From Chloroflexota bacterium (GTDB taxonomy: Bacteria > Chloroflexota > Limnocylindria > Limnocylindrales > CSP1-4), in the NCBI GenBank assembly GCA_042408925.1, contig JBHOQO010000075.1, positions 1-61,163 on the forward strand: 61,163 nt of DNA, in the 5' to 3' direction. This document shows positions 3,177 through 22,138 of this stretch, piece by piece (position 1 is the stretch's first letter; each line of letters begins with the position of its first letter). The notes beneath the pieces were generated by a model that saw only the letters and a program-made list of their open reading frames with translations, was not told the origin of the DNA and did not search any database. Position numbers and translations under genes: made by a program.

Positions 3177-4129
3177 CGGTGACGGGCCGCGGACGCGAGG
3201 CCGACGCCTGCCCCCGGCCGGGCGAGCGGTTCGGGAGCGGGCGCCACGAACCGCTCAGGATGTCGGCTCGGCGCCTCCTCCGACCCGGGCGTCGATCGAA
3301 CCGCCGGCGCCCCGTCGAGGGGGAAGCGGGCTCGGATCCGGGTCCCGGCGTCCGGTGCCGACCGGATGTCGAGCTCGCCGCCGACCGCGAGGACCCGGGC
3401 CCGCATCCCCCAGAGGCCGCTGCTCGCTCCGGCGGCGGCGGCGAGGGTAGCTCGGACGACGTCGAAGCCCCGGCCGTCGTCGGCGACGACGAGCTCGAGC
3501 CAGCGCCCGCTGCGCCGGAGGACGACGTCGACGACCCTCGCCCCGGCGTGGCGATCGATGTTCGTGAGGGCCTCCTCGAGGACCCGGTAGCAGGCGGTCT
3601 CGACGGCGTCGGGGAGTGTCGCCTCGAGGCCGGCGCAGCGGATCCTGGCCCGGAAGCCGGCGAGGGCGGCGTGGCGGGCGAGCCCGCTTCGGGCGGCCGC
3701 CTCGAGCCCCAGATCGGCGACGATCGACGGGCGGAGCTCGCGAACGAACGAACGGACGGCTCGGAGCGCCTCGTCGATCTGCTGGAGGCAGACGTCGAGC
3801 GGGGTCCGCGAGCCCTGGGGGAGCCCGTCCCGGCCGAGGGCGACGATGGCGAGTCGGACGGCCGTCAGGGCCTGGCCGACGACGTCGTGGAGCTCGCGGG
3901 CGAGCCGCTGGCGCTCGAGCTCGATCGGCTCGCCGGACGGCGGCGGTGCGCCGGGACCCGAGGGACCGGCTGACGTCGAGGCCGACCGGGCCGCCGGCGA
4001 GCTGCCGGTCGCCGGCGAGCTGCCGGTCGTGCCCTGCGCCGCGGCGCCTCCGTCCTCCGAGCGGTCGGTGGGCGGAACCGACGCTCGGCTCCGCGCACTC
4101 CGTGGCGTTGGCAAGACGGGCCCGATCAC
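3173..4129 (-). CDS. HisKA_3 histidine kinase without recognisable sensor or TM domain
   Basis: ERQRLARELHDVVGQ, EEALTNIDRH, DDGRGF, SSGLWGMRARV. GTG 4129 has a GGAGGAGG RBS; the N-terminus is low complexity. Confidence 0.85.
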   Translation of the reverse strand: MIGPVLPTPRSARSRASVPPTDRSEDGGAAAQGTTGSSPATGSSPAARSASTSAGPSGPGAPPPSGEPIELERQRLARELHDVVGQALTAVRLAIVALGRDGLPQGSRTPLDVCLQQIDEALRAVRSFVRELRPSIVADLGLEAAARSGLARHAALAGFRARIRCAGLEATLPDAVETACYRVLEEALTNIDRHAGARVVDVVLRRSGRWLELVVADDGRGFDVVRATLAAAAGASSGLWGMRARVLAVGGELDIRSAPDAGTRIRARFPLDGAPAVRSTPGSEEAPSRHPERFVAPAPEPLARPGAGVGLASAARHR

Positions 4130-4537: not shown

Positions 4538-5683
4538 GTGGAGGTAGCGGAGGCGATGGGGGCCCAGCCGGTCGAACCCGGTCCGGTCCAGGAACAGCGT
4601 CGGTTCCGGCGTTGGCTCGCCGGGGAGCCGACATGGCTTCAGGCGGCCCTCGATCTGTTCGGCCTGTTCGTCATCGTCCTCACCTTCGCCCAGGCGGGCG
4701 ACCCGGATTTCCTCTTCCACGTCGTCTGGGTCGTCCTGGCGATCGAGGCGTTCCTCTTCGGCCTCCGGGTGACCGCCCTCCGGATCGCGCTGGCGACGGG
4801 CTTCCTCCTCGGCTACGAGCTCGCCGTCGAGGCGGAGCTCGCCCTCGCCGGCCGGCCGCTCGTGCCGCTCGAGTTCTCGATCTGGCCGGTCTCCGAGTGG
4901 CCGCTCATGGTCGTCATCTCGATCATCGTCGCGGTCATGGCCGACCGACTCGCCACGACCGGGCGTCGCTACGCGGGCCTCTACCGGCGGGCGAACGACC
5001 GGCTCCTCTCGGCTCAGGAACAGGAGCGTCGCCGCCTCGCCCGGGACCTCCACGACGGCGTCGGCCAGACGCTGACCGCCCTGACCCTGACCCTCGACGC
5101 CGCCGAGTCGCTCCTCTGGGCCGGCCCCGAGAAGCCGCCGGAGCACGCCCGGGCGGCGATCCGCCGGGCCCAGGAGCTCGCGGCAGCGGCCCTCGAGGAG
5201 ACCCGGGGCGTCGCCTTCCAGCTCCGGCCGGCCCGGCTCCACGAGACCGGCCTCGTCGCCGCCATCTCGGAGCTGGCGCGGATGGCCGGTCGCCCGGTCG
5301 AGGTCGTCGCCGAGCCCCGGCTGATCCGCCTCGGGCTCCTGGCCCCGGAGGCCGAGGTCGAGGCGTACCGGATCGTCCAGGAGGCGCTCGGGAACGCCCT
5401 CCGCCACGCCCGGGCGGAGCGGATCCGGATCGAGGCCGGCCTCGCCGGCGAGCGGCTCGTCGTCCGGGTCGTCGACGACGGCGTCGGGTTCGACCCCGAT
5501 CGGGTCCAGGGGCTGGGGCTCCCGGGGATGCAGGAGCGGGCGGCGGCGATCGGGGCCGTCCTCGCCGTCGTCAGCCGGCCGGGTCGAGGGACGACGGTCA
5601 CCCTCTCGATCCCCCTCGCCGGGCACCCCCGGTCGGTCTCCGGCGAGGTCGTCGACGCCGCGCCGATGGCGGCTCGGACCTAG
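4538..5683 (+). CDS. Membrane HisKA_3 sensor histidine kinase
   Basis: About 4 hydrophobic segments, then ERRRLARDLHDGVGQ, QEALGNALRH, DDGVGFD, GLGLPGMQERA. Start may be ATG 4556. Confidence 0.9.
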   Translation: MEVAEAMGAQPVEPGPVQEQRRFRRWLAGEPTWLQAALDLFGLFVIVLTFAQAGDPDFLFHVVWVVLAIEAFLFGLRVTALRIALATGFLLGYELAVEAELALAGRPLVPLEFSIWPVSEWPLMVVISIIVAVMADRLATTGRRYAGLYRRANDRLLSAQEQERRRLARDLHDGVGQTLTALTLTLDAAESLLWAGPEKPPEHARAAIRRAQELAAAALEETRGVAFQLRPARLHETGLVAAISELARMAGRPVEVVAEPRLIRLGLLAPEAEVEAYRIVQEALGNALRHARAERIRIEAGLAGERLVVRVVDDGVGFDPDRVQGLGLPGMQERAAAIGAVLAVVSRPGRGTTVTLSIPLAGHPRSVSGEVVDAAPMAART

Positions 5684-7396: not shown

Positions 7397-9133
7397 TCAG
7401 CCGAGGGGATGCGCGGCCCGCAGCCGCCCGCCGGTCGTCACCGCGCCCTCCGAGGCCGACGAGACGAGGGCCGCGTACTTGGCGAGGGCGCCGCTCCGAT
7501 AGCGAGGCTCCGGCGGTCGCCAGGCGGCCCGGCGGCGTTCGAGCTCGGCCGGATCGACGAGGAGATCGAGGCGCTTGGCGTCGACGTCGATCTCGATGAG
7601 GTCGCCGTCCTCGACGAGGGCGATCGGGCCGCCGAGGGCGGCCTCCGGGGCGACGTGGCCGATCATGAGGCCGTGGGTCCCGCCCGAGAAGCGGCCGTCG
7701 GTCAGGAGGGCGACCTCGGGCCCCAGGCCCTCGCCGACGAGGGCGGCGGTGACGCTCAGCATCTCCTGCATCCCCGGCCCGCCGACCGGGCCCTCGTAGC
7801 GGATGACGATGACGTCGCCGGGTCGGATCTGCTGATTCTTCACGGCCTCGAAGCAGGCGGGCTCGGAGTCGAAGACCCGGGCCGGGCCGCGGTGGTGGCG
7901 GCGTTCGTGGCCGGCGAGCTTGATGACGCAGCCGTCCGGGGCGAGGCTGCCGCGCAGGATCGCGAGGCCGCCGACCGGCTTGAGCGGTCGTTCGATGGGG
8001 ACGACGACCTCCTGGCCGGGCGTCTCGACGGCGGCGGCGGCGATCTCGGCGATCGTCCGCCCGTCGACCGTCCGGCACGATCCGTGGAGGAGGTTGCGCT
8101 TCAGGAGCTCGCGCATGACGAGGCCGACGCCGCCGGCCTCGTACATGTCCGCCGCCGTGAACCGCCCGCCGGGTTGCATGTCGGCGACGATCGGGGTCCG
8201 GTCGGCGATCCGGCCGAAGTCGTCGAGCTCGAGGGGGACCCCGAATTCGTGGGCGATGGCGAGGAGGTGGAGGACGGCGTTCGTGCTGCCCCCCGTCGCG
8301 GCAACCGAAGCGATGGCGTTCTCGAGGGCCTCGCGGGTCACGATGGAGGACGGCCGGATGTCGTGGCGGACGAGGCTCATCGCGATCTCGCCCGTCCGCC
8401 GGGCGGCCTCGTCTTTCGCCGGGTCCTCGGCCGGGATCCCGTTGAGGCCGGCCGGGCTGAGGCCGAGGAACTCGAGGGCGGTGCTCATCGTGTTCGCGGT
8501 GTACTGGCCGCCGCAGGCGCCGGCCCCGGGGCAGGCGACGTTCTCGATCTCGTAGAGCTCCTCGAGGCTGATCTTGCCGGCCCGGTAGGCACCGACGGCC
8601 TCGAAGACCGTGACGATCGTGGCGTTCCGGCGACCCCGATAGACGCCGGGGTAGATCGTGCCGTTGTAGAGGACGACGCCGGGGACGTCGAGACGGCCGA
8701 GGGCCATCGCCGCGGCCGGGATCGTCTTGTCGCAGCCGACGAGGCAGACGAGGCCGTCGAGGAGGTGACCGCGAACGACGAGCTCGATGCTGTCGGCGAT
8801 GACCTCGCGGCTGACGAGGGACGCCTTCATCCCCTCGGTCCCCATCGAGACGCCGTCGCTGACGGCGATGGTGTTGAACTCCATCGGAGTGCCACCGGCG
8901 GCCCGGATCCCTTCCTTCACGAACTCGGCGAGGCGACGCTGGTTGTAGTTGCAGGGCATCGTCTCGATCCAGCTTGTGGCGACGCCGACGAGGGGCTTCG
9001 AGAGGTCCTCGTCGGTGAAGCCGATCGCCTTGAGCATCGCCCGGGCCGGGGCGCGGTCGGGGCCTTCGGTCAGGGCGACGCTGTGGCGCTTCGCCGGGTC
9101 GGGGGGGCGGTGGTAGGGGTGGGGGTCGGGCAT
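7397..9133 (-). CDS. ilvD: Dihydroxy-acid dehydratase
   Basis: [60 protein letters not shown] 9133. Confidence 0.97.
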
Positions 9134-10041
9134 CGTGGGTCGTCCTCGCGTGGCTGGGCACACTCTGGCGGAGCCGGTCCGGGCCGACTCGGAGGTCGCC
9201 GGCCGACCGCTTCGCGCTGGTCTCGCCTCCAGTCTAGGCCGCGGGACTGTCTTCGGTCACCCGCGATGGTCACGTCGCTCCCTCGTCGGGGAGCCGGGCG
9301 ACGCCGTTGCCCGGCCTGCGCACCGGCCCGGCGTCTGGCAGGCCGCCGTGCGCGCGGGCCCGGGGTCCGCTCGTGTCGTGCCGCTCGAACGAACCAGATC
9401 CCCGCCAACGGTCCTTGCGGTGCGCGGAGCCAGGCCCGAACCGCCCGAGTCCGTGCCGGGAGCGTCGGGCGCAGGACGTCCTCGAAGCGGTCGACCTTGG
9501 CCCGCAGACCGGAGCGGTCCGGGAGGACGACGAGGCGGGCGACGGCGGCCGGTCGCCAGCCCCGCTCGGGCGCCAGGACGGCGACGGCGATCCGCGCCTT
9601 CCGATCGAGGGAACCGAGGAGGTCCTGGAGGTCGACGAGGTCGGACTTCACCTCGACGACGAGGAGCGCCCGAGCCTCGGGATGCCAGGCCACTAGATCG
9701 ATGGCGCCGCGCTCGCCGAAGTGGTTGAAGGTCCACTCGTGGAGGACCTCCCAGCCGAGCGCCCGGAGGATCGCCGTCGCGGCGGCCACGATCTCGGCGT
9801 GGTCGGCATCGAGGAGGCGGTCGAGCTCCGGGCCGCGCCACCGGACTCGAACCTCGAGGGAGGCGCCGAGGGCGCCGAGGACCGCTCGGAGGGCTCGGAT
9901 CGTCGTCGTCTCGAGATCGCCTCGTTCCAGGCGCGAGACTTGCTGCTGGCTCTGCTTCGCTCGCAGCCCGAGCTGGCGCTGGCTCAAGCCGAGCCGGAGT
10001 CGGATGACGCGGATGGTTCTGCCGATGCGGGCGCTGTCCAT
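9070..10041 (-). CDS. XRE-family HTH fused to PD-(D/E)XK-like nuclease domain, with long Arg-rich tail
   Basis: [28 protein letters not shown] (XRE HTH), then GAIDLVAW...LVVEVKS (D...ExK). The tail overlaps the ilvD start by 64 nt. Confidence 0.8.
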
Positions 10042-10200
10042 GGCGCGGAGTGTCGCCGCGGCCCCTCACCGCCCGCGTATCGGGGGTGGATCCCACCTCT
10101 GGCGGCGCACCCTGCCCCGGCTCCCGCCGCGGCCGCCGATCGGCCGCGCTCCCTCTGGATGGACTGCGCTGCAGTCTCATCACGGTCGCTCATCGGCCGC

Positions 10201-10649
10201 GGCACCGCGCCCGGGCCGCCGCTCGCTCCGTCCGGGCCGCGGATCTTCTCGGATACTCACCCGGGTAGTGAACCGCGCAACGCCCGCCTCGTTTTCCACC
10301 CCCGCCACCCCGATGCCGAGCGTGGCCGGTCGGCGGGTCGCCGGCGCGAGCCCGTGCGTTGTCGGCGATTACTCCCAGGGCTGGTACCTCGGAAGATCCG
10401 ACCAGCGGTTCACTACCCCGGGGCGTATTGTGGAAGTTCCGCCCCCTCGGCCCGGCCCGTCACTCGCCCCGCTAGTAGCCTGGAAATTGCGGGCTCGCGG
10501 CCGGCGGGAACGAAACCGACCTCCAGCGGCTCGCAGCCGTCACTCGCCCCGGTAGTAGCCTGGAAATTGCGGGGCCGCCGGCGGGCGACGCCGGTCGTGG
10601 ACCCTCCGGCGGTGCCCGGCGGGCGCTCGTACCGTGGACGGTTCCAGCG
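10201..10649. repeat. Dispersed ~449 bp structured intergenic repeat, copy 1
   Basis: Near-identical to 19528-19975 (offset 9327); first 138 nt identical. Internal 24-nt imperfect inverted repeat (10253-10276 / 10405-10428) and 37-nt direct repeats (10457-10493, 10537-10573). Confidence 0.95.
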
Positions 10650-10654
10650 CGCTG

Positions 10655-11869
10655 CTATCGCCGACGCCCATCCACATCCTCCGGCGCCGGATCCGCGGAG
10701 CTCGCTCCCTCTTCCGCGGCGACCGGCTCTTCCGCGGCGACCGGCTCCGCCGGCGACGTCCCGGCAGGCCCGGCCTCGCGACCGCCCGCCAACCCTCGGA
10801 AGGCGACACGGCGCCGCGGCAGCGTGGCCGCGACGCCTCGGAGCTCGGCCCACGAGAGCTCCCGCTGACCCATGATCCCGCCGGGGCGGAAGACGATGAC
10901 GAGGATGAAGAAGGCGGCCAGGAGGATGCCGCTCATGCCGTAGAGCAGGGTGGCATCCTCGATCCGCCGGAGCGCCTCGGCGATGGCAACGACGGCCACC
11001 GTACCGAGGATGGAACCGTTCACCGATCCCATCCCGCCGACGACGAGCATCGTGATGACTCGGAACGTCAGGTCGAAGTAGAAGACGGTCGGCGAGAAGG
11101 ACGTGATGAAGTGGGCGTAGAGGGAGCCGGCGACCGCCGTGAAGAAGGCGCTGACGACGAAGGCGACGAGCCGGGGTCGAAGGATCGAGACGCCCACGGC
11201 CTGGGCGGCCCACCGGTCGGCCCGCTGGGCGAACATCTCCCGCCCGAGCGAAGAGTGCTTCAGACGCCAGGCGACGAGGACGGTGACGACCGCCCAGCCC
11301 CAGGCCCACCAGGCGTTCGTGTACGGCGTGACGTTCGAGAAGGTCCGCGATCCCCGGGTGAAATCGTCAGCGTTGAAGAGGATGACCCGGACGATGACGA
11401 GGAACCCCAGGGTGGCGACGGCGACGAAGTGACCCGAGAGCCGAAGGAGGACGGCCCCGACGACGAGGGCGAGAGCGGCCACGAGGAGGCTGGCGAGGAT
11501 CGTCGCCGCCAACCAGCCGACCGGGAGCGGTCCGAGCATCTGATCGAAGTGGACGCCTGCCAGCCAGCCGGGAAGGCGCGGTAGGTAATCGGCCTTCTCG
11601 CGCAGGGGGAGCGTCAGGATCGCCGAGATGTAGGCGCCGAGGGCCATGAAGCCGATGTGGCCCAGCGAGAAGACGCCGGTGAACCCCGAGGCCAGGTTCA
11701 GGCTGACGACCAGGATCAGGAAGATCGCGAGGTTGATGGCGAGCCCCTGCCAGAAGGCGAGCCCCGACACGTCGAGCAGGGCGAGGAAGACGCCGAGGAG
11801 GACGAGGAGACCGATCGCCGGTCCGGAACGCCGGTTGCCGGCCGCCCCGCCCGCTGCCGGACGGCTCAC
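10655..11869 (-). CDS. livM: Branched-chain amino acid-type ABC transporter permease (LivM-like)
   Basis: LNLASGFTGVFSLGHIGF, LRLSGHFVAVATLGF, VVGGMGSVNGSILG. Confidence 0.88.
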   Translation of the reverse strand: MSRPAAGGAAGNRRSGPAIGLLVLLGVFLALLDVSGLAFWQGLAINLAIFLILVVSLNLASGFTGVFSLGHIGFMALGAYISAILTLPLREKADYLPRLPGWLAGVHFDQMLGPLPVGWLAATILASLLVAALALVVGAVLLRLSGHFVAVATLGFLVIVRVILFNADDFTRGSRTFSNVTPYTNAWWAWGWAVVTVLVAWRLKHSSLGREMFAQRADRWAAQAVGVSILRPRLVAFVVSAFFTAVAGSLYAHFITSFSPTVFYFDLTFRVITMLVVGGMGSVNGSILGTVAVVAIAEALRRIEDATLLYGMSGILLAAFFILVIVFRPGGIMGQRELSWAELRGVAATLPRRRVAFRGLAGGREAGPAGTSPAEPVAAEEPVAAEEGASSADPAPEDVDGRRR

Positions 11870-12837
11870 GGTGTCTCCTCCCGGGCGGCGCGGAGGATGC
11901 CGTTCGGGCGGAAGAGGAGCATGAGGATCAGGAAGACGAACACGAAGGCGTCCCGGTAGCTCGCGAGCCCGGCGGGGAAGAGGGTCGCCAGGAGGTCGTG
12001 GACCGACGGGGAGACGGATCCCGGCGGCAGGATGTCGGCGATCCCCGCGAGGGCGGTGGGGATGACCTCGAGGAGCCCGAGGGCGTACCCGCCGACCACG
12101 GCCCCGGTGAGGCTGCCGAACCCGCCGATGACCGCCGCGATGAAGGCCTTGAGGACGGGGGTAAACCCCAGGTACGGGTTGATCTGGCCCGCCTGGGAGG
12201 CGTAGAGGAAGCCGGCGACGGCGGCGAGCCCGGAGGCGATGGCGAAGGCCGTCGCCACGACCCGGTTCACGCGGATCCCCATGAGCTGGGCCGCGGTCAG
12301 GTCGTCGGCTGCCGCCTGCATCGACAGCCCCAGGCGGGTACGCGTCACGAAGAGACTGAGGAGGATGAGGAGGATGACCCCGCTGCCGAAGCTGGCGACG
12401 TTCACGCGCGGAATGGTCAGGGGCCCGAGGGCGACGACGCCATCGAGGCCCGGGGGCGCCGGGAAGGCGATCTGGATCGGCTGGCCCGCCAGCCGACTGA
12501 CGAGGAGGACGCCGTTCTCCAGGATCTGGCCGACCGCGAACGAGGTGAGGAGGACGGCGACGTCCGGCGCCCCGCGGATCGGGCGATAGGCGATCCGCTC
12601 CATCGCCAGACCTACCAGGACGGTCCCGGCGACCATGACCACGATGGCGGCCGGTAGCGGGAGACCGGCGAAGAGGGCGAAGGCCGCCAGATAGGCGGCG
12701 ACCATCATGATGTCGCCGTGGGCGAAGTTGATGAGTCGGAGGATCCCGAAGATCATCGCCAGGCCCACGGCCATGAGCGCGTAGAGGCTGCCGGCGCTGA
12801 GACCGTTGACGATCTGCTGGAGAACGTAGACGTCCAT
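11866..12837 (-). CDS. livH: Branched-chain amino acid-type ABC transporter permease (LivH-like)
   Basis: QQIVNGLSAGSLYALMAVGLAMIFGILRLINFAHGD, KAFIAAVIGGFGS. Confidence 0.9.
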   Translation of the reverse strand: MDVYVLQQIVNGLSAGSLYALMAVGLAMIFGILRLINFAHGDIMMVAAYLAAFALFAGLPLPAAIVVMVAGTVLVGLAMERIAYRPIRGAPDVAVLLTSFAVGQILENGVLLVSRLAGQPIQIAFPAPPGLDGVVALGPLTIPRVNVASFGSGVILLILLSLFVTRTRLGLSMQAAADDLTAAQLMGIRVNRVVATAFAIASGLAAVAGFLYASQAGQINPYLGFTPVLKAFIAAVIGGFGSLTGAVVGGYALGLLEVIPTALAGIADILPPGSVSPSVHDLLATLFPAGLASYRDAFVFVFLILMLLFRPNGILRAAREETP

Positions 12838-12840
12838 CGC

Positions 12841-13542
12841 CTAGTGCCCCAGGTACGACTGCTCGATGCGGGGATCGTGTCGGAGCTCGGCCGCCGGCCC
12901 GCTCAGCGTCACCCTGCCGGTCTCGAGGACGTAGACGCGGTCGGCGACGTCGAGGGCGTGGTGGACGTTCTGCTCGACGAGCAGAATCGTCAGGCCCTCG
13001 CCCTTGAGCTCGGCGATCGTCCGGAACACCTGCTCGACGATCAGCGGGGCGAGCCCGAGCGACGGTTCGTCGAGGATGAGAAGCCGTGGGCGACTCATGA
13101 GGGCACGGGCGATGGCGAGCATCTGCTGCTCCCCGCCCGACAGGGTCCCGGCGGCCTGCCCCAGTCGCTCGTGCAGGATCGGAAAGAGCGATTCCATCCG
13201 CTCGATGTCCCGCCGAACCTCGGCCGGGGGCCGCTGGATGCCGCCGAGGATGAGGTTCTCGCGGACTGTGAGCCGGCCGAAGACCCGGCGTCCCTCCGGA
13301 CAGTGGCTGATCCCCATCGCGACGATCTCCTCCGGCGCCGCCCGGGTGATCGCCCGGCCGAGGAACCGGACGACCCCAGCCCGTGGGCGAACGAGGCCCG
13401 AGATGGCCCTGAGCGTCGTCGACTTTCCGGCGCCGTTCGATCCCAGGATCGCGACGAGCTCCCCTTCGGCGACGTCGAGCGACACGCCGTGGAGGGCCCG
13501 GATGCTCCCGTAGGCGACCTCGAGGTCGCGGACCTCAAGCAC
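12841..13542 (-). CDS. livF: ABC ATP-binding protein (LivF-like)
   Basis: GSNGAGKST, HCPEGRRVF, LSGGEQQML, LDEPSLGLAP, VEQN. Confidence 0.93.
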   Translation of the reverse strand: MLEVRDLEVAYGSIRALHGVSLDVAEGELVAILGSNGAGKSTTLRAISGLVRPRAGVVRFLGRAITRAAPEEIVAMGISHCPEGRRVFGRLTVRENLILGGIQRPPAEVRRDIERMESLFPILHERLGQAAGTLSGGEQQMLAIARALMSRPRLLILDEPSLGLAPLIVEQVFRTIAELKGEGLTILLVEQNVHHALDVADRVYVLETGRVTLSGPAAELRHDPRIEQSYLGH

Positions 13543-14350
13543 TGCGAGCCTGCCCGATGTAGGCGGCGATGACGTCCGGGTCGTTGCGGACCGAGGCCGG
13601 GTCCCCGTCGGCGATGAGGACGCCGTGGTCGAGGACCTGGATCCGCTGGCAGAGGTTCATGACCAGTGGAATGTCGTGGGCGACGAGGATGATCGTCAGG
13701 TCGAGCTGGTCCCGGAGCTCGCGGATGAGGGCGAGGAGGTCCGCCGTCTCAGTCGGATGCATCCCGGCGTTCGGCTCGTCGAGGAGGAGGAGCCTCGGCC
13801 GCGACGCGACCGCACGGGCGATCTCGAGCCGTCGCTGATCGCCGTACGAAAGGCTGTGGGCCGGCCGGGCGGCGAGATCGCGAAGGCCGACGAGCTCGAG
13901 GAGCCCCAGGGCCTCGTCGTGGATCCGCTCCTCCTGGCGACGGTAGGTCCTCGTCGAGGCGAGGGTGGCCCAGAGTGAATAGCGATAGCGGCGCTGGACG
14001 GCGACCTTGACGTTGTCGATGGCCGTGAGGTCCCCGAAGAGGCGGATGTTCTGGAAGGTGCGCGCGATCCCCAGCCGGGCGACCTCGGCGGGCGGGCGGT
14101 GGGTGATCTCCCGCCCGTCGAGGTAGATTGCCCCGCTCGTCGGGCGGACCATCCCGGACAGGAGGTTGAACAGCGTCGTCTTCCCGGCTCCGTTCGGGCC
14201 GATGACGCCGTGGATGATCCCCGCCGGGAGGCGCACACTGTAGTCGGACAGGGCGAGGAGCCCGCTGTAGCGCTTCGTGAGGTGGCGAACCTCGAGCAGC
14301 GGCGAACGATCGTCTTCGGGTACGGTCACCACCCGATCCTCCTGGGACAT
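13535..14350 (-). CDS. livG: ABC ATP-binding protein (LivG-like)
   Basis: GPNGAGKTT, ARTFQNIRLF, LSYGDQRRLEIARA, LLDEPNAG. ATG 14350. Confidence 0.93.
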   Translation of the reverse strand: MSQEDRVVTVPEDDRSPLLEVRHLTKRYSGLLALSDYSVRLPAGIIHGVIGPNGAGKTTLFNLLSGMVRPTSGAIYLDGREITHRPPAEVARLGIARTFQNIRLFGDLTAIDNVKVAVQRRYRYSLWATLASTRTYRRQEERIHDEALGLLELVGLRDLAARPAHSLSYGDQRRLEIARAVASRPRLLLLDEPNAGMHPTETADLLALIRELRDQLDLTIILVAHDIPLVMNLCQRIQVLDHGVLIADGDPASVRNDPDVIAAYIGQARSA

Positions 14351-14626
14351 CGGACTCCGGACCGGGGTCGGAGCTCGCCGGGGCTTGGCGTCGGTGGCGC
14401 CGAGCCCGCTCCGGCTCACCCCCGAGCACGACCTCCGCGGTCGGGAGCGTGATGGCGGCGACTATCGCATAGGCGCCGGGGAGCGTCAAACCGATCGGTC
14501 GTCCTAGGGCGGCAGCGTCCCGCCTTACGCGCCGATCCCGGCTACCATCGGATGTCGTCGCCGAGACGGGTCGGGGGGCACCGTCGGCGCCCCCATGATC
14601 CATTGCCCGCCGGGCGGGAGGTGAGG

Positions 14627-15988
14627 ATGCCAACAACCATCGAGGACGTCGTCGCCCGGGCCCGCGAGGACGGGATCCGCCTCGTCCGCTTCCTGTACTG
14701 CGATCCGTCGGGGATCATCCGCGGCAAAAACGTCCACATCGACCTGTTGGAGGCCCGGATGCGGGGCGGCGTCGGGCTGACCCGGGCCCAGAACGCCATC
14801 AACCTCCTGGAACAGCTCGTTCCGGTCGAGGGCATGGAGCCGGTGGGCGAGATCCGGATCGTGCCCGATCCGGAGACCTACTCGCGTCTGCCGTGGGTGC
14901 CACGGACGGCGAGCCTCATCTGCGACCAGCTCGATCACAGCTGGCAGGACTGGGGAGCCTGCTCGCGGAGCTTTCTCAAGCGGGCGATCGCCGCCGCCGC
15001 CGACGCCGGGATTGTCGTCAAGGCGGCCTTCGAGAACGAGTTCTACCTCGCCGAGGAGGTGGACGGCGAGATCCGGCCCTACGGCAACGGACCCGTCTAC
15101 TCGTCGGCCGGGATGGACCGGGTGGCGCACGTCATCGACGACATCGTGGCGGCTCTCGAGGTCCAGGGGATCGTCGTCGAGCAGGCGATCAACGAGTACG
15201 GAGCGGGCCAGCAGGAGATCGCCGTCCGGTACAGCGATGCGCTCCGGGCTGCCGATACCCAGATCAAGCTTCGCGACACCGTCCGCGGTGTCGCCGAGGT
15301 CGGGCACGGCCTCGTCGCGACCTTCGCGGCCAAGCCGTTCGGCGACCAGATCGGCTCGGGGGCCCACATCCACTTCAGTCTCTGGTCCGTCGACGGACGA
15401 GACAACCTCCTCTACGATCCGGCGGCCGGCCCCGGGTTGGTGTCCGAGCTCGGGCGACGCTTCATCGCCGGCGTCCTCGACCACCTCCCGGCCCTCGTCG
15501 CCCTCACCTGCCCCAGCTACAACTCGTACGAGCGGCTGCGGCCCCAGGCCTGGGCCGGCTCGACGGTTTCCTGGGGGCCCGACAACCGGGAGGCGGCCCT
15601 CCGCGTCGTCTCGCCGTTCCGGGGCCGCGAAGAGGAGTCCACGAACCTGGAGCTCAAGACCTGCGATCCCAGCTGCAACCCGTACCTCGCCCTCGGCGGC
15701 CTCATCCACGCCGGTCTCGACGGGGTCCGGCGCGGTCTCGAGCCGCCCGAGCCCGCCCTCCACGACCCGGCGCTCCTCTCCGATGAGGAGCGCCGGCGAT
15801 GCGGGATCCGGCCGCTGCCGGCCTCGCTTCGGGACGCCCTGGCGGCGCTCCAGGCCGACGACGTCCTCTTCCCGGCCCTCGGCGACCTCCTGGGGCGCTG
15901 CCTCGTCGCGGTCCGGAGTGCGGAGGCGGCGGCCTTCGAGGCGATGACCCCCGAGGCGGCCCGGCTTGCCCACCTCCGGATCTTCTGA
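14627..15988 (+). CDS. Glutamine synthetase-like gamma-glutamyl ligase (GlnA4/FluG C-terminal-like)
   Basis: FENEFYL, NEYGAGQQEI, GSGAHIHFSL, WGPDNREAALRV, ELKTCDPSCNPYL. ATG 14627 after GGAGGTGAGG. Confidence 0.88.
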   Translation: MPTTIEDVVARAREDGIRLVRFLYCDPSGIIRGKNVHIDLLEARMRGGVGLTRAQNAINLLEQLVPVEGMEPVGEIRIVPDPETYSRLPWVPRTASLICDQLDHSWQDWGACSRSFLKRAIAAAADAGIVVKAAFENEFYLAEEVDGEIRPYGNGPVYSSAGMDRVAHVIDDIVAALEVQGIVVEQAINEYGAGQQEIAVRYSDALRAADTQIKLRDTVRGVAEVGHGLVATFAAKPFGDQIGSGAHIHFSLWSVDGRDNLLYDPAAGPGLVSELGRRFIAGVLDHLPALVALTCPSYNSYERLRPQAWAGSTVSWGPDNREAALRVVSPFRGREEESTNLELKTCDPSCNPYLALGGLIHAGLDGVRRGLEPPEPALHDPALLSDEERRRCGIRPLPASLRDALAALQADDVLFPALGDLLGRCLVAVRSAEAAAFEAMTPEAARLAHLRIF

Positions 15989-16138
15989 CGCCGGGTCGCG
16001 CCGGCAGGCGCCGGGCAGGTTCCCCCGGGGACGATCCGGTTGCCGTTCGTCGGCTCGGTGCCCGATGATTGGGGCTTCCGGTATCCCCGTCCCGGACGAC
16101 GGGTCTCGGTCCGGGGTGCTCGTCGCAGGAGGTAGGAC

Positions 16139-16834
16139 ATGTTCGCCAACGTCCGCGTCGTCGATCTCACACAGACCCTCCACCCGGGGACGGTCATGTG
16201 GCCGGGAGCCCCGGCGCCGGTGGCGGACACCGTCTTGACCGTCGCCCACGACGGCTTCTACAACCGCCGCCTCACGTTCATGGAGCACAGCGGGACGCAC
16301 TTCGATGCCCCGTGCCACATGGTCGAAGGCGCCGAAACCGTCGACCAGATCGGCCCCGAGCGCCTGTTCTGCCCGGTTGCCGTCATCGACATCAGCGCCC
16401 GGTGCGCCGGCGACCCGGACGCCGTCCTCAGCCTCGAGGAAGTCCACGCCTTCGAGGCGGCCCACGGAACGATCCCGAACGGGGCAGCCGTCTTCTTGCG
16501 GACGGGCTGGGAGACCTTCAACACCGATCCTGCCCGGTACGCGGGTGCTCCGGGGCCCCTCCGCTTCCCCGGGTTCGGCCCGGAGGCAGCCCGTTTCCTG
16601 GTCGAGGAGCGGGGCGCGGTCGGGCTCGGGATCGACACCCTCGGCATCGACCCGGGGTTCGACGCCGACTTCGTCGTCCATCGCCAGATCAGCCATCCTC
16701 GCGGCGTCTGGCATCTCGAGGGGCTGGAGAACCTCTCTGCGCTGCCGCCCCTCGGGGCCTGGGTCGTCGTCGGGGTCCTGAAGACGAAGGACGGGTCGGG
16801 CGGTCCGGCTCGGGTCCTCGCCCTCGTTCCGTGA
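16139..16834 (+). CDS. Cyclase family (kynurenine formamidase-like) metallohydrolase
   Basis: EHSGTHFDAPCH (HxGTHxDxPxH), GIDTLGID, HLEGLENL, GSGGPARVLA. Confidence 0.9.
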   Translation: MFANVRVVDLTQTLHPGTVMWPGAPAPVADTVLTVAHDGFYNRRLTFMEHSGTHFDAPCHMVEGAETVDQIGPERLFCPVAVIDISARCAGDPDAVLSLEEVHAFEAAHGTIPNGAAVFLRTGWETFNTDPARYAGAPGPLRFPGFGPEAARFLVEERGAVGLGIDTLGIDPGFDADFVVHRQISHPRGVWHLEGLENLSALPPLGAWVVVGVLKTKDGSGGPARVLALVP

Positions 16835-16852
16835 CGAGCGCCGGCGGGAGCC

Positions 16853-18124
16853 ATGGCGGGGGTCCCGGCGGGCAGCGACTCGGTGGCTGAGGGCGGCAGG
16901 CGGACCGATCCGCCGGCGGGCCTCGTCGCTACGGGGCCGATCGCCGACGGACCGCGTGCCATCGCCGACGGGCCGCATCCGGAGGTCAATGACCTCCTGG
17001 CGTCGGTCCGGCTTCTCGACCACCACGTCCACACCGTCCTTCGAGGGCGCTTGTCCGCCGAACGGCTCGTCGAGATCCTCAGCGAGTCGAACCGACCCGA
17101 GGCGGCCCGGCGGGCGGGGATGGCAACCCAGCTGGGGGTCGCGGTGCGTCGCTGGTGCGCTCCCCTCCTCGGTCTCGAGGCGGGTGCCGCTGCCGAGGCG
17201 TATCTCGCGCTCCGGGCGACGCTGCCGAACACCGACGTCGCGTCCCGGCTGCTCCCGGCTGCCCGCCTGGCGGGGCTCCTGGTCGACACCGGCTACCCGG
17301 TCGACGACGCGGTGCCCCTAGACGAGCTCGGGGAGCTCGCGGCGGCGCCGGTCCGGGGCGTGCTCCGACTCGAGCGCCTCGCCGAACGCGTCCTGCGGGC
17401 GGCGGGAGCCGCCGCGTTCCCGAACGCGTTCGAGGCGGCTCTGGCGGAGGAGGGCAGGCAGTCCGTCGCCGTGAAGTCGATCGCCGCCTACCGGACGGGG
17501 CTCGACCTCGACCCCGACCCTCCGGGCCGTGCCGAGGTCGTGGCCGCGGCAGGGGCCTGGCTGGCGGCCGTCGAGCAGGGCGCGGCGCCGCGGCTCGCCG
17601 ACCCCGTCATCGAGCGGTTCCTGCTCTGGAGCGCCGTCGAGCTCGGCAAGCCGCTCCAGCTCCATACCGGGTTCGGCGACCCCGACCTCGACCTCCACCG
17701 GGCGAACCCGCTCCTGCTGACGGGGTTCCTCCGGCGCACGGAGGGGCGCCTCTGGGTCCTCCTCCTCCACACGTATCCCTTCCACCGGGAGGCGGCGTAC
17801 CTGGCGCACGTCTTCCCCCACGTCGCCTTCGATATCGGGCTGGCGATCAACCACAGCGGCGTCGGGAGCCAGCTGCTCCTCGCCGAGGTGCTGGAGATCG
17901 CCCCGTGGTCGAAGCTGCTCTTCTCGTCCGACGCGTGGGGGATCCCGGAGCTCCACCTGCTCGGGAGCTGGCTCGTCCGGCGCGGGCTCGCCCGGATCCT
18001 CGGTCGCTGGATCGTCGACGGGGACTGGCAGCTCGACGACGCCCGCCGGTTCGTCGAGCTGCTGGCCGTGGCGAATGCCCGCGAGATCTACGGGCTGGGG
18101 GACGCTGATCTCCGGCTCGCGTAG
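16853..18124 (+). CDS. Amidohydrolase family protein (FluG N-terminal-like)
   Basis: LLDHHVH, KSIAAYRTGL, QLHTGFGD, LLHTYPF, FSSDAWGIPE. Start uncertain. Confidence 0.85.
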   Translation: MAGVPAGSDSVAEGGRRTDPPAGLVATGPIADGPRAIADGPHPEVNDLLASVRLLDHHVHTVLRGRLSAERLVEILSESNRPEAARRAGMATQLGVAVRRWCAPLLGLEAGAAAEAYLALRATLPNTDVASRLLPAARLAGLLVDTGYPVDDAVPLDELGELAAAPVRGVLRLERLAERVLRAAGAAAFPNAFEAALAEEGRQSVAVKSIAAYRTGLDLDPDPPGRAEVVAAAGAWLAAVEQGAAPRLADPVIERFLLWSAVELGKPLQLHTGFGDPDLDLHRANPLLLTGFLRRTEGRLWVLLLHTYPFHREAAYLAHVFPHVAFDIGLAINHSGVGSQLLLAEVLEIAPWSKLLFSSDAWGIPELHLLGSWLVRRGLARILGRWIVDGDWQLDDARRFVELLAVANAREIYGLGDADLRLA

Positions 18125-18235
18125 CCGAGACCGGCGACGCGGAGGCGGGCCGCGGCTCGACGGCTGGCGCCGGGAACGGACGGAGTGCTACGCTACGATG
18201 CCGATCGATCCCGAACATGGAAACGGAGGAGGAGC

Positions 18236-19402
18236 ATGTTCCGTCGCCTCGTTGCCCTCGGCCTGGTGGTCGGCCTCGTCGCTGCGGCATGCAGCGGCAC
18301 CGGTGGGGGGAACACGATCAAGGTCGGCGGCGGGTTCGCGCTTACGGGTGATGAATCAGCGCTCGACCTGCCCGCCGCCAACGGTGCCAAGCTGGCCGTG
18401 AAGGAGATCAATGCGGCCGGCGGTGTCCTCGGCAAGCAGATCGACTTCATCGTCCACGACAGCCAGTACAAGATGGACGTCACCGCCCAGACGGCGAAGC
18501 AGTTCGTCGAGCAAGACAAGGTCGAGGCGATGATCGGTTACACCGACACCGACTCGGTCCTCGCTGCCGGGCCGACGTTCCAGCAGGCGGGGATCCCCTT
18601 CATCAGCGTCGGTGCGACGTCGCCGAAGATCCCTTCCCAGGTCGGCGACATGATGTTCCTCGCTGCCTTCGGTGACAACGTCCAGGCTGCCGCCGGCGCC
18701 GAGTACGCGTTCAAGAACTTCGGCAAGACCGCCTATCTGCTCTGGGACAAGGGCGTGGAGTACACGACCCTCCTGGGTGGCTACTTCAAGTCGCGGTTCA
18801 CGGAGCTGGGCGGCACGATCGTCCTGGAGGACTCGTACGACGACAAGGCCACCGATTTCTCGGCCCAGATCGCCAAGGTCAAGGCCCTGCCCCAGCAGCC
18901 GGACTTCTACTACATCGCGGCGATGCCGTACAACGTCGGTCCGGTCGTGAAGCAGTTCCGCGATGCGGGGCTGACCGGCCCCATCCTCGGCGGTGACGGC
19001 TACGACACGCCCGACCTCGTCAGCGTCGCCGGGGCGGCCTCGGACAACGTCTACTTCTCCACCCACGCGCTCATGGATGCCACGAACGGCACCGACGGCA
19101 TCAAGAAGTTCATCGCGGCCTACAACAAGGAGTACGGCCGCGACCCGGAGAACGCCTTCGCGGCCCTCGGGTACGACACCGTGTACCTGCTCGTCGACGC
19201 CATCAAGCGGGCCGGCTCTACCGACCCCAAGGCGCTGAAGTCGGCGATCGAGGCAACGAAGGACTTTCCGGGGATCACGGGGTCGATCACCTTCAGCGCC
19301 GAGAGCCACGTGCCTCAGAAGGGGGTCACGATCATCGCCGTGAAGGACGGCAAGTTCACCCTCGGCGCCGAGGTCGTTCCGGAGAAGGTTCCGGCCCCGT
19401 AG
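18236..19402 (+). CDS. ABC substrate-binding lipoprotein (LivJ/K fold)
   Basis: Lipobox-like LVAAAC, INAAGGVLGKQI, ALGYDTVYLLVDAIKRAGS, FPGITGSITF. RBS GGAGGAGGAG. Confidence 0.9.
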   Translation: MFRRLVALGLVVGLVAAACSGTGGGNTIKVGGGFALTGDESALDLPAANGAKLAVKEINAAGGVLGKQIDFIVHDSQYKMDVTAQTAKQFVEQDKVEAMIGYTDTDSVLAAGPTFQQAGIPFISVGATSPKIPSQVGDMMFLAAFGDNVQAAAGAEYAFKNFGKTAYLLWDKGVEYTTLLGGYFKSRFTELGGTIVLEDSYDDKATDFSAQIAKVKALPQQPDFYYIAAMPYNVGPVVKQFRDAGLTGPILGGDGYDTPDLVSVAGAASDNVYFSTHALMDATNGTDGIKKFIAAYNKEYGRDPENAFAALGYDTVYLLVDAIKRAGSTDPKALKSAIEATKDFPGITGSITFSAESHVPQKGVTIIAVKDGKFTLGAEVVPEKVPAP

Positions 19403-19424
19403 GCGCTCGTTCGACGCGCGCCGT

Positions 19425-19453
19425 GGAGGGGGCCGACGTCGTCGGCCCCCTCC
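19425..19453 (+). terminator. Terminator-like hairpin after the SBP gene
   Basis: 13-bp perfect stem GGAGGGGGCCGAC/GTCGGCCCCCTCC with a 3-nt loop, followed only by GCTTGT (weak U tract). Confidence 0.6.
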
Positions 19454-19527
19454 GCTTGTACCTCGACCCGGGTTCGATGCGATGGCTCCAGTCCGAGGAG
19501 CGCACGTTCGCGCAGGCCGCCCGTTCC

Positions 19528-19975
19528 GGCACCGCGCCCGGGCCGCCGCTCGCTCCGTCCGGGCCGCGGATCTTCTCGGATACTCACCCGGGTAGTGAAC
19601 CGCGCAACGCCCGCCTCGTTTTCCACCCCCGCCACCCCGATGCCGAGCGTGGCCGGTCGGCGGGTTGCCGGGCCGCCCCCGCGAATCTTCCTCGGTTACT
19701 CCTAGGGGTGGTAACTCGGAAGATCCGACCAGCGGTTCACTACCCCGGGGCGTATTGTGGAAGTTCCGCCCCCTCGGCCCGGCCCGTCACTCCCCCCGCT
19801 AGTAGCCTGGAAATTGCGGGCTCGCGCCCGGCGGGAACGAAGCCGACCTCCAGCGGCTCGCAGCCGTCACTCGCCCGCCAGTAGCCTGGAAATTGCGGGG
19901 CCGCCGGCGGGCGACGCCGGTCGTGGACCCTCCGGCGGTGCCCGGCGGGCGCTCGTACCGTGGACGGTTCCAGCG
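19528..19975. repeat. Dispersed ~449 bp structured intergenic repeat, copy 2
   Basis: Same orientation as 10201-10649. It differs mainly in a central ungapped block (19666-19714), plus a few SNPs and a 1-nt deletion. Confidence 0.95.
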
Positions 19976-20009
19976 GGTTCGCGCTGCCCGCTACGGCGGG
20001 CGGGCCCGT

Positions 20010-21020
20010 CTAGAACGCGTCGAACCAGGCCTGGATCGCCTCCCGGTCGTCCGAGCGCGTGAGGGTGAGCGAGAGGAGCAGCCGCGCCTTCCAGGGAACG
20101 AGATCGCCGGCCGCGATCCAGCCCCGCGCCGCCATCGACGGACTCCGCGCCACCCGCCCCGAGCCGACCCGCGAGGCGATGCAGACGACGACCCCGGCCG
20201 CGCTCGCCCGCTCGAGCGCCGCGACCTCCCCCGGCGTCGGGTAGCCGGCGCCCGTGGCCGCGCCCACGATCCCGCGCGCCCCGGCCGCGACGAAGGCGTC
20301 GATCGCCGTCCCGTCGGCCCCGATGTACGAGACGACGACGTCGACCCGCGGGAGCCCGTCGAGCCCCCGGACGTCGAAGGGCGTCGCCGTCGTGTGCGAC
20401 CGCACCGGCCGCCCGACCCAGACGACCCGTCCATCGGCGTCGGCAACCCCAAGCGGCCCCGCGTCACGGGCGACGAAGGCGTCGGTCCGGAAGGTCGCCC
20501 CCTTCGTCACGTCCCGGGCCGACCAGATCCGGTCGTCGAGGAGGACGAGCGCGCCGAGCCCGGCTGCCCCCGGATCGGCCGCGACCCGGATCGCGTTCAA
20601 GAGGTTCAGGTCGCCGTCGGAGCTCAGAGCGGACGCCGGCCGCATCGCCCCGGTGACGACGATCGGCCGGTCGGTTCGGGCCGTCAGATGGAGGAAGTAG
20701 GCCGTCTCTTCGAGGGTGTTCGTCCCGTGGGTGACGACGACCCCCTCGGCGCCGGCAGCGATCGCCCCCTCCACCGCGCGTCCGACCTCCAGCAGGTCGG
20801 CGTCCCGGAAGGCGTGGCTCGGTCGCGGCCGGAACGGGACCTCGACGACCTCGGCGATCGAGGCCGCTTCGGGGATCCGGGCGAGGAGCTCGCCCGGGCC
20901 GAGCCGTCGCCCGGTCTCGAGATAGAAGGCGAGGTCGAGCCGGTCGGCGCCGAGGGCGTCGATGGTGCCGCCGGTGCTGATGAGGGCGATCCGGGGTCGC
21001 TCCGCCACGGCGCGCTCCAA
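20010..21020 (-). CDS. Asparaginase/glutaminase family protein
   Basis: ISTGGTI, THGTNTLEE, VTGAMRP, DGDLNL, RDVTK. TTG start. Confidence 0.88.
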   Translation of the reverse strand: MERAVAERPRIALISTGGTIDALGADRLDLAFYLETGRRLGPGELLARIPEAASIAEVVEVPFRPRPSHAFRDADLLEVGRAVEGAIAAGAEGVVVTHGTNTLEETAYFLHLTARTDRPIVVTGAMRPASALSSDGDLNLLNAIRVAADPGAAGLGALVLLDDRIWSARDVTKGATFRTDAFVARDAGPLGVADADGRVVWVGRPVRSHTTATPFDVRGLDGLPRVDVVVSYIGADGTAIDAFVAAGARGIVGAATGAGYPTPGEVAALERASAAGVVVCIASRVGSGRVARSPSMAARGWIAAGDLVPWKARLLLSLTLTRSDDREAIQAWFDAF

Positions 21021-21061
21021 GCGTTCGGTTCCGCGTCTGTTCCGCGGGAGTGCCGCGCCGC

Positions 21062-22138
21062 CTACACCCCGACGGCCGCAGCCGCCTCAGGGGCTTCGGT
21101 CGACCCGGCGTCCCCGGCCCCCACCCCCGTCCCGTGCCAGCCCGCCGCCCGCGCCGCCCACGCCTCGGCGATCGCCGCCGGCGGCCGATACCCCTCGACC
21201 CGGGCGATGAGCCGCCGGATCCGCCAGCCGAACCAGGGCCCCAGGGCATAGAGCGGCATCGGCTGGAGCCAGACCGCGCTCCCGAGGCTGACCGCGTCGG
21301 CCCCCGCCCAGAAGTACTCGCGGCAGTCGTCGAAGCTCCGGATCCCTCCGGTCGCGATGATCGGGAGCCGGATCCCCGCGTCCCGGAGCTCGGCGACGAC
21401 CCGCAGCCCGATCGGCTTGATCGCGCGCCCCGAGAGCGAGCCGAAGCGGTTCCGCATGAACGGCCGCCCCGTCGCCGGGTCGAGCCGGAGCGCCTTCACG
21501 GCGTTGATCGCCGTCACGGCCGCGACCCCGAAGCGCTCGGCGAGGCGGGCCTGGGCGACGTAATCCTCGTCGGGCGAGAGCTTCAGGATGACCGGGTGCC
21601 GGCTCCGCGGGACGGCCGCCGCCAGAACCTCTTCCAGGATCGTCTCGAAGGGAAAGTTCACGTTGTGGCACGAGACGTTGAACTCGACGGCGGCGATCGA
21701 GCCGACGGGGGCCCGCTCGTTCACCGTCTCGACGAGGCGGACGAACTCGTCGGCCGAAAAGCCGCCGACCGAAACGATCCGGTTCAGGTGGTGGGTCCGC
21801 GGGAAGTACTCCTCGAAGTAGCGGTCGATGCCGATGTTCGACCAGCCGAAGGCGTTCAGCCAGCCGGCGTCGACCCGCCGGAGGGCGCCGGCGTAGAGGC
21901 GAAGCATGGTCGGAAACTCGTGGAGCTTCCAGTCCTCGCGGAGGCTGAAGTGGCCCTCCCGCGGCTCGACGGTCAGGGTCCGGGTCGTCACGGCCCCGAA
22001 CCGCTCGAGGGGGACCCACTGGGCGATGGGCGAGAGCCCGTAGAGGACGAGGCGGCCGGCCGGGGCGCCGTAGCCCAGGAGGCTGGCTGAGGTGAGGAGG
22101 CGGTTCCGGAGGTGAATGCCGTTGAGGTCGATGGTCAT
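21062..22138 (-). CDS. Divergent dihydroorotate dehydrogenase family 1-like flavoprotein
   Basis: LRNRLLTSAS, EFNVSCHN, PVILKLSP, TAINAV, GSLSGRAIKP, PIIATGGI, GADAVSLGSA. Confidence 0.75.
   Translation of the reverse strand: MTIDLNGIHLRNRLLTSASLLGYGAPAGRLVLYGLSPIAQWVPLERFGAVTTRTLTVEPREGHFSLREDWKLHEFPTMLRLYAGALRRVDAGWLNAFGWSNIGIDRYFEEYFPRTHHLNRIVSVGGFSADEFVRLVETVNERAPVGSIAAVEFNVSCHNVNFPFETILEEVLAAAVPRSRHPVILKLSPDEDYVAQARLAERFGVAAVTAINAVKALRLDPATGRPFMRNRFGSLSGRAIKPIGLRVVAELRDAGIRLPIIATGGIRSFDDCREYFWAGADAVSLGSAVWLQPMPLYALGPWFGWRIRRLIARVEGYRPPAAIAEAWAARAAGWHGTGVGAGDAGSTEAPEAAAAVGV

Follow-up and report, generated by a model that had tools for sequence, protein, structure and literature searches.

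The closest described counterparts of the locus considered here are the repetitive extragenic palindromic (REP) sequences, their doublets (REPINs) and the REP-associated tyrosine transposases (RAYTs) (PMC3116915, PMC3337134, PMC5581495), with which it shares palindromic units of ~35 nt, their inverted pairing into a foldback of ~200 nt, tens of intergenic copies, and a single-copy, vertically inherited nuclease-type gene beside one of them. On the protein side, the likeness is to the UPF0102/YraN-RPA0323 and XisH proteins, which have a small restriction-endonuclease-like core with D...ExK (RPA0323, structure 3fov, was classed with UPF0102 in a survey of the PD-(D/E)XK superfamily; Steczkiewicz et al. 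2012, PMC3424549), and to XRE-type autoregulators such as C.BclI, C.Esp1396I and HigA/HipB, which likewise have repeated operator-like sites overlapping the promoter of their own gene. The locus lies in a 61,163-nucleotide stretch of DNA from a Chloroflexota bacterium (assembly GCA_042408925.1, contig JBHOQO010000075.1), hereafter the window, whose positions serve as coordinates throughout. In it, a gene for a helix-turn-helix (HTH) protein with a fused nuclease-fold domain sits next to one of two copies of a structured repeat, and an initial annotation had seen in this arrangement a selfish element made of nuclease and repeat, with copy 1 autonomous and copy 2 non-autonomous, or else an RNA-associated nuclease. 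A selfish pair of this sort would have represented a mobile element of a new kind. On the evidence presented here that proposal mostly comes apart: it is likely that the adjacency is historical, and that a stand-alone gene with its own promoter happens to have a separate repeat as its neighbor.

Gene, repeat and hairpin all read on the minus strand, on which the sequence and the list of open reading frames (ORFs) give the order livM-like permease (11869-10655), repeat copy 1 (10650-10195), a short hairpin (10181-10158), the HTH-nuclease ORF (ATG at 10041, end at 9070, 323 aa) and ilvD (from 9133; 7397..9133). Copy 1 spans 456 nt and begins 5 nt past the livM stop. The second copy, also on the minus strand (19527-19975) and 95% identical to the first, lies between the asparaginase stop (20010; gene at 20010..21020, minus strand) and a convergently oriented solute-binding-protein gene whose end is at 19402. 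Reading the minus strand of 8800-10900 alongside the ORF list thus bears out the order of gene, repeat and hairpin that had been described, and it is equally true that no HTH-nuclease gene follows copy 2.

The proposed division of labor between the two copies does not fare as well. A model of the foldback core (~200-225 nt; 10239-10463 in copy 1) finds ~20 loci on 18 contigs of this genome, several of them at contig ends. Just one of these adjoins an HTH-nuclease gene, and the other ~18 lie near no member of its family. Conversely, the genome (2.8 Mb, 92% complete) holds two family members by tblastn, the window gene on contig C131 and a 44%-identical paralogue at C48:6941-7582, and no repeat occurs anywhere on contig C48. 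On position alone, the chance that one or both of two genes lie within 300 nt of any of 20 loci is ~2%, a figure that is post hoc, as the gene was noticed through the adjacency itself. If the repeat were a partner of the gene, it had been reasoned, it should recur upstream of homologues in other genomes. Across 80 loci from species-representative genomes, the models of the repeat unit found units in L010, a locus of the same genus, and in none of the other 79 loci, which lie outside it; a relaxed scan of the 80 with the unit profile hidden Markov model (E up to 200, --max) gave no clear enrichment near the gene beyond L010. The repeat DNA is convincing only within the genus, and even there the start codon lies anywhere from ~80 to 300 nt beyond the last unit, across sequence that does not align. 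In the window, the units of copy 1 are confined to the upstream side of the gene (10238-10573), with none at 9000-10200 and ilvD directly downstream. Homologues of the gene thus largely lack the repeat (the 79 loci and the C48 paralogue), and the repeat largely lacks the gene (the ~18 other copies), which is the outcome that had been named in advance as telling against a two-part element.

Gene order in relatives provides the second line of evidence. In L008, where the HTH-nuclease protein is 91% identical to that of the window, the order is DHO-dehydrogenase, asparaginase, a short repeat, HTH-nuclease and, as its contig reaches that far, ilvD; in L010 (the same locus as G003:C49; 76-77% identical) it is DHO-dehydrogenase, asparaginase, repeat and HTH-nuclease; L007 (88%) has a repeat core upstream of the HTH-nuclease gene, which is followed by ilvD, and L009 (86%) has the HTH-nuclease gene and ilvD. 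These orders point to asparaginase-repeat-HTH-ilvD as the ancestral arrangement of the genus. The association with ilvD reaches further, as four distant loci with HTH-nuclease proteins 41-51% identical to the window's (L012, L016, L024 and L069) have ilvD downstream and no match to the unit model. That this neighbor has been kept over such distances argues that the HTH-nuclease gene is a resident of its site and not the cargo of a mobile copy, and together with the promoter motif described below it makes the gene a poor fit to something carried on a mobile copy. In L007, L008 and L009 the HTH-ilvD pair is kept, and in L008 and L010 it is asparaginase, and not livM, that lies upstream of the repeat.

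The livM-like permease (10655..11869, minus strand) is instead the last gene of a module that these relatives lack. In the window, 9.3 kb running from the solute-binding-protein gene to livM, together with the second copy of the repeat, is interposed between asparaginase and the repeat. Besides the solute-binding-protein gene, the module has genes for a liv-type ABC transporter, a GS-like protein, a cyclase and an amidohydrolase. Asparaginase, repeat and HTH-nuclease gene follow one another directly in L008 (4029-4292) and L010 (1698-2366), where the window has 10195-19975. Either the module and one repeat copy were inserted at the repeat, or they were deleted from the relatives through it; the simplest route would be recombination through the repeat, with a circle bearing one copy integrating or the reverse deletion occurring in relatives. 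The second copy is accordingly the other flank of the 9.3-kb module, not a derivative that has lost its gene, and it is the placing of this module beside a repeat, with a second copy at its far end, that would have given rise to the picture of one copy with a gene and one without. Public contigs placed on 8800-21200 stop at the edges of the repeat, which in run X3 (copy 2 included) is covered about twice as deeply as its flanks; no joint giving an empty site stood out among these contigs, and the runs listed for the locus included no RNA run.

The third line of evidence is that the gene appears to have a promoter of its own. When k-mers in the 250 nt upstream of homologues were compared with the rest of the loci (n = 79), GATAAGC and GGTAAGC-type heptamers were enriched, GATAAGC with p = 4e-18. 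In 48 of the 79 loci these take the form of two to five direct repeats of G[AG]TAAGC, one every 11 nt between about -45 and -20, followed by a CATCCT-like hexamer ~6-9 nt ahead of the start codon. The window gene has a promoter- or operator-like stretch at the matching position (10049..10084, minus strand), with CCCGATACGCGGGCGGTGAGG forming two half-sites spaced by 11 nt (10084-10064) and a -10-like GACACT (10054-10049) 7 nt before the ATG; at the equivalent position L010 has CGATACGTCGCCGATACGT and the C48 paralogue has (AAAGTGGCCGATAC) twice. Such tandem patterns are unique or nearly so in the genome, that of the window gene being unique. From their position and conservation we infer that the promoter is autoregulated and that the transcript is leaderless. 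With a promoter-proximal motif of its own, the gene would need nothing from a repeat 150 nt farther upstream.

The heptamers are not confined to family promoters. In the genome of the window (G000), two intergenic stretches around an ABC permease gene at C154:9800-11450, outside the window, are dense in G[AG]TAAGC with an 11-nt period, and they carry 25 of the 68 genomic heptamers and 12 of the 13 tandem sites. Of the five genomic occurrences of the 10-mer GTGGCCGATA, two stand 17 nt apart ahead of the C48 paralogue, in its promoter, and two 18 nt apart on C154. The array on C154 may be a second target of the C48 paralogue, and the sharing of GTGGCCGATA between the two places, as far as sequence goes, supports site-specific binding that would extend beyond autoregulation.

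The short hairpin between repeat and gene (10158..10181, minus strand) probably has no functional role. It is present as described, GAUGAGACUGC-AGC-GCAGUCCAUC with 10 bp and one bulge, but at -14.6 kcal/mol it is weak (z = -1.98; 8 of 200 shuffled sequences fold equally well), it has no U-tract, and no counterpart of it aligns in L007, L008 or L010, whose sequence ahead of the gene shows little conservation.

What the gene encodes is much as it had first been read, an XRE-HTH joined to a PD-(D/E)XK nuclease fold with D...EVK intact, and Pfam, invariant residues and fold matches all agree on this. The conserved core covers residues 1-224 or so (9370..10041, minus strand), as delimited by Pfam, invariant columns, AlphaFold2 and Foldseek, with the HTH domain at residues 1-67 (9841-10041) and the nuclease-fold domain at about residues 72-218. 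In Pfam, residues 5-67 match HTH_37 (7.9e-09, 35.6 bits against a cut-off of 27) and HTH_3 (4.5e-07, 30.2 bits against a cut-off of 23), and these matches, with PDB profile matches to HigA2 and C.BclI, identify the five-helix lambda-Cro/434-type HTH of the XRE family. The C-terminal domain is far harder to see at the level of sequence. Its match to UPF0102/YraN (PF02021; residues 87-133, E = 0.0037) is weak and does not reach the gathering threshold (18.0 bits against 23.6, over profile positions 4-41 of 80 only), the NCBIfam YraN match has E = 0.011, and apart from sub-threshold UPF0102 nothing but the HTH was matched in Pfam, NCBIfam, PADLOC and PHROGs. AlphaFold2 models of the full protein (pLDDT 93.9) and of its C-terminal domain (93.6) are confident, and the order of elements in the domain model, H-E-E-E-H-E, is the alpha-beta-beta-beta-alpha-beta core of PD-(D/E)XK nucleases. 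With this domain, Foldseek retrieves the restriction-like endonuclease domain of the R2 retrotransposon (R2 RLE; TM 0.5), XisH (2inb, 2okf), RPA0323 (3fov), Card1/Can2, Bax1 and BstEII, and with the N-terminus it retrieves HigA2, HipB and C.BclI. In alignments of 30 and 45 homologues (about 41-89% identity), six residues never vary (H81, R111, G112, D115, E130 and K132), and E102 is almost as constant. D115 (9697-9699), E130 (9652-9654) and K132 (9646-9648; all minus strand) make up, on strands 2-3, the D...(D/E)xK catalytic motif of the superfamily in all 45, and an invariant triad argues that the protein may cut or nick DNA at or near its binding sites. The C-terminal domain thus belongs to the PD-(D/E)XK superfamily and the HTH to the XRE family, and judged from sequence and model the ORF encodes an intact HTH-fused nuclease-fold protein. 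Conservation stops at about residue 225, homologues being 230-260 aa long and ending ~10-40 residues after the core. The last ~75-90 residues of the 323-aa ORF have no homologue counterpart and run into ilvD; this non-conserved read-on (9070..9369, minus strand), delimited by homologue lengths and overlapping the ilvD start, looks like the result of losing the usual stop codon, which has left an Arg/Pro-rich tail.

Proteins of this build, with an XRE HTH and an intact PD-(D/E)XK domain joined over ~240 residues, form a large and uncharacterised family to which the window protein belongs. A word-indexed search returned 364 homologues, nearly all of 230-260 aa and annotated just as XRE regulators, and 432 family loci were found in species-representative genomes; no account of such an XRE/PD-(D/E)XK fusion family turned up in our search of the literature. 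Related loci come mostly from metagenome-assembled genomes (MAGs) labelled Chloroflexota, Limnocylindria or 'Chloroflexia'. The distribution is uneven: in one taxonomic family (f1) the gene is present in 25 of 25 genomes, with 1-7 paralogues each, some with stops or frameshifts, and in another (f2) it is found in none of 16 small genomes.

The repeat, for its part, has the architecture of a mosaic. Copy 1 holds three palindromic units of ~35-38 nt in one orientation (10537-10573, 10456-10493 and 10406-10442) and one that is inverted (10238-10275). An iterated model of the unit, with consensus CGGAACTTCCCGGATACTCGCCGGGGGAGTGA, finds 42 units in the genome, and aligned copies show four palindromic units with TACTCGCC..GGCGAGTA cores in which TAC/GTA is invariant, joined by the conserved linkers CACGCTCGG and TGGAAAAC and by variable spacers. 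With 42 units and ~20 foldback cores, these are dispersed intergenic palindromic units that often form inverted pairs, as in REP-RAYT/REPIN systems. All unit pairs found are ~130-200 nt apart, and none of them brackets a gene in the way that shared terminal inverted repeats would bound the transposase gene of an autonomous partner of a miniature inverted-repeat transposable element (MITE), though several copies lie at contig ends (C2, C34, C121, C60 and C68) of a fragmented MAG. At one such end (C2:2783-3036) there are five tandem units with a 50-nt period, so pure tandem arrays are possible besides foldbacks. A second REP-like family, with a 51-nt period and unrelated to the window's unit, is present at no fewer than 15 G000 loci (e.g. 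C4:3990-4457, C62:175-706 and C146:28795-29177), where the period is 51 or 102 nt and the core is CGTGACGCCGTAGCTGGACA(T/C)(C/T)TC. As to folding, the minus strand of the window repeat folds somewhat better than shuffled sequences (z = -2.28), and RNAalifold on 15 copies finds long-range pairs between units with changes on both sides, for instance UA in 7 copies and GC in 6. Such covariation between units suits DNA hairpins and RNA equally. In Rfam 15, gathering and E-value thresholds gave no family match, the only hit being a chance-level miRNA at E = 5.6. Nor does the genome encode a Y1 (HUH) transposase of the RAYT type (PF01797), which was detected in control genomes.

The case for a purely historical adjacency is not one-sided, however, and several observations weigh against it. 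The adjacency of repeat and gene has been kept in all four genus-level loci, and the genome has no RAYT to account for the spread of the repeat. The GGATAC of the unit resembles the CGATAC of the operator half-site, although the likeness is too short for testing. Repeats of one kind or another are, moreover, in excess around family members. Of 71 distant loci, 10 have the gene enclosed by a repeat pair, whereas of 194 neighboring genes of similar size only 1 is so enclosed (Fisher p = 1e-5); under a stricter threshold the count is 4 of 80 loci, with 6 pairs found elsewhere over 615 kb (p = 0.03). Of tandem arrays found with TRF at a period of at least 44 nt, 22 fall within 600 nt of the gene, which is 17% of the sequence, and 6 in the other 83%, so that their density near the gene is ~18 times that in the rest of the 100 loci.

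The arrangements vary. Inverted arms in L076 and L020 measure 41-67 nt with 90-98% complementarity: L076 has three 80-nt units upstream and two inverted ones downstream, with arms that are 98% complementary, and L020 has arms of 67 nt. Direct repeats flank the gene in L047, L070, L030 and L119. In both L076 (3714-3991 and 4918-5086) and L020 (1465-1531 and 2526-2592), which come from two other Chloroflexota MAGs, the bracketing repeat (TGCCCCGGAGGCGCCGCCGGCGACTCCGGACCGCCTC) contains a hairpin and is tandem on both sides, and the L076 genome has it at one other locus only. The flanking repeats of L070 and L030 (ACACTCACC...GGTGGTA) seemed akin to the window's unit, but the likeness falls short of significance and we do not rely on it. 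At L014, a perfect direct repeat of 254 nt (3607-3860 and 4626-4879) has one copy overlapping the 3' end of the HTH-nuclease gene and is the product of a recent local duplication or else of the assembly.

As a statistical tendency, then, family members are bracketed or bordered by lineage-specific repeats, which may reflect a gene-repeat relationship looser than the one first proposed. Some features of the data weaken the excess. Intergenic flanks of family genes are longer than those of their neighbors (median near 200 nt versus 113 nt), which may account for part of it; the host genomes are rich in intergenic arrays, with 58 of period at least 44 nt in this genome; and the flanking repeats differ from lineage to lineage. 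Among 20 paralogue loci from five genomes, no repeat was common to the loci of one genome. In G041 and G042 the flanking repeat has just 1-5 other copies, and no HTH paralogues were found at these.

It is tempting to see in this excess a partnership of the RAYT kind, in which a domesticated single-copy HTH-nuclease recognises the palindromic units and nicks or recombines them, maintaining and spreading the repeats, with a cognate repeat family in each lineage. The adjacency conserved in the genus, the distant loci bracketed by inverted (L076, L020) or direct (L070, L030, L047, L119) lineage-specific repeats, the statistical excess, the missing Y1 transposase and the intact nuclease triad would all be accommodated, and vertical inheritance with stable synteny is typical of RAYTs as well (PMC5581495). 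Even so, we consider such a partnership unlikely, because in this genome the adjacency holds at 1 of ~20 repeat loci and for 1 of 2 paralogues, because ~85% of family loci have no flanking repeat pair, because paralogue loci in the same genome share no repeats and those of G041 and G042 are so rare, because the window repeat lies on one side of the gene only, and because the DNA motif that the family does conserve is a promoter-proximal 11-nt tandem site and not a palindrome. The more general proposition that the whole family is an unrecognised counterpart of RAYTs in Limnocylindria-type Chloroflexota, an autoregulated sequence-specific nuclease driving duplication, tandem expansion or recombination of repeat units, strikes us as distinctly unlikely. 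Were it true, it would explain both the repeat beside the window gene and the repeat pairs or arrays that border ~15-25% of family members, and also how modules like the 9.3-kb transporter island are captured through repeats.

A different possibility is that the gene works alone in defence or addiction, for example as a restriction-like or type IV nuclease fused to a controller HTH, and has no connection with the repeats, which would then simply mark variable, island-like intergenic space. The HTH is indeed closest to HigA, HipB and restriction-modification controller proteins, the family has 1-7 divergent paralogues per genome with pseudogenes among them, its GC content at third codon positions (GC3) is below that of neighboring genes, and its gene neighborhoods vary. 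But PADLOC recognises nothing beyond the HTH, no conserved methyltransferase or toxin partner adjoins family genes, and synteny groups are stable over many genomes, all of which makes this very unlikely. Least probable, and in our judgment highly improbable, is that the repeat is a cis-acting part of the gene's expression (a leader RNA, a distal operator array or an enhancer-like platform) or a structured 3' UTR of the genes upstream, targeted as RNA by the nuclease: the minus-strand folding, the covarying long-range pairs and the start of both copies 5-35 nt past a stop codon could be cited for it, but Rfam offers no matching family, repeat and gene are variably spaced with a linker that does not align, ~18 other copies lie in unrelated intergenic contexts, the covariation fits hairpins in the DNA of a REP-like element just as well, and the protein has a double-stranded-DNA-binding HTH and no RNA-binding domain, so that nothing points to an RNA-guided nuclease or to the RNA-associated one of the initial annotation.

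We therefore return to the reading of a stand-alone gene beside an independent repeat, and a history of the locus can be sketched on that basis. The HTH-nuclease gene would have been inherited vertically in the chromosome and be driven by a promoter immediately ahead of it, in which at least two half-sites spaced by 11 nt cover the -35 region and a -10-like box precedes the start codon by ~7 nt. Its product would repress its own synthesis by binding these 11-nt direct repeats, and the nuclease domain, to judge from the invariant D...ExK, may cut or nick DNA at or near the bound sites. The repeat would be an independent element, one of ~20 REP/BIME-like foldback copies (BIME, bacterial interspersed mosaic element), of which one has presumably stood between asparaginase and the HTH-nuclease gene since before the genus diversified. 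Copies of the repeat probably served as substrates for homologous recombination, the most likely route by which the 9.3-kb module of transporter and GS-like genes came to be placed there.

In place of a selfish element, the analysis defines a large unannotated family whose members keep the nuclease domain intact, occur as several paralogues in a genome and share a conserved promoter built around 11-nt tandem sites. It also documents a REP/BIME-like family in an uncultured Chloroflexota lineage that has no RAYT, and the relatives with empty sites show the repeat marking the junction of a 9.3-kb metabolic module. The excess of repeats around family members, finally, is a concrete hypothesis that is open to biochemical test.

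It is instructive to set these components against the systems with which we began. The best fold matches among small proteins, 3fov (25% identity), 2okf and 2inb, are single-domain proteins of ~100-130 aa without an HTH, whereas the window protein adds an N-terminal XRE HTH, a long helix and an extra helical/beta C-terminal part to the common core, and its Pfam match remains below the cut-off. XRE autoregulators are matched by the HTH at E = 1e-9 to 1e-5, but C-boxes and antitoxin operators are usually palindromic while the sites of this family are direct repeats with an 11-nt period, and here the nuclease effector is part of the same polypeptide, with no partner gene. The resemblance to REP/REPIN-RAYT systems is tempered by the lack of a Y1 (HUH) transposase, the different fold of the protein and the weak association of gene and repeat across the family; a RAYT partner gene is flanked by REP sequences on both sides, whereas the window gene has repeats on one side only. 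The repeat is unrelated in sequence to BIME- and BOX-type mosaics, and its host belongs to an uncultured Chloroflexota lineage, but it has the same modular combinations of unit types, conserved linkers, variable spacers and tandem unit arrays, and it is best described as a REP/BIME- or REPIN-like mosaic element, a member of an ordinary though undescribed family.

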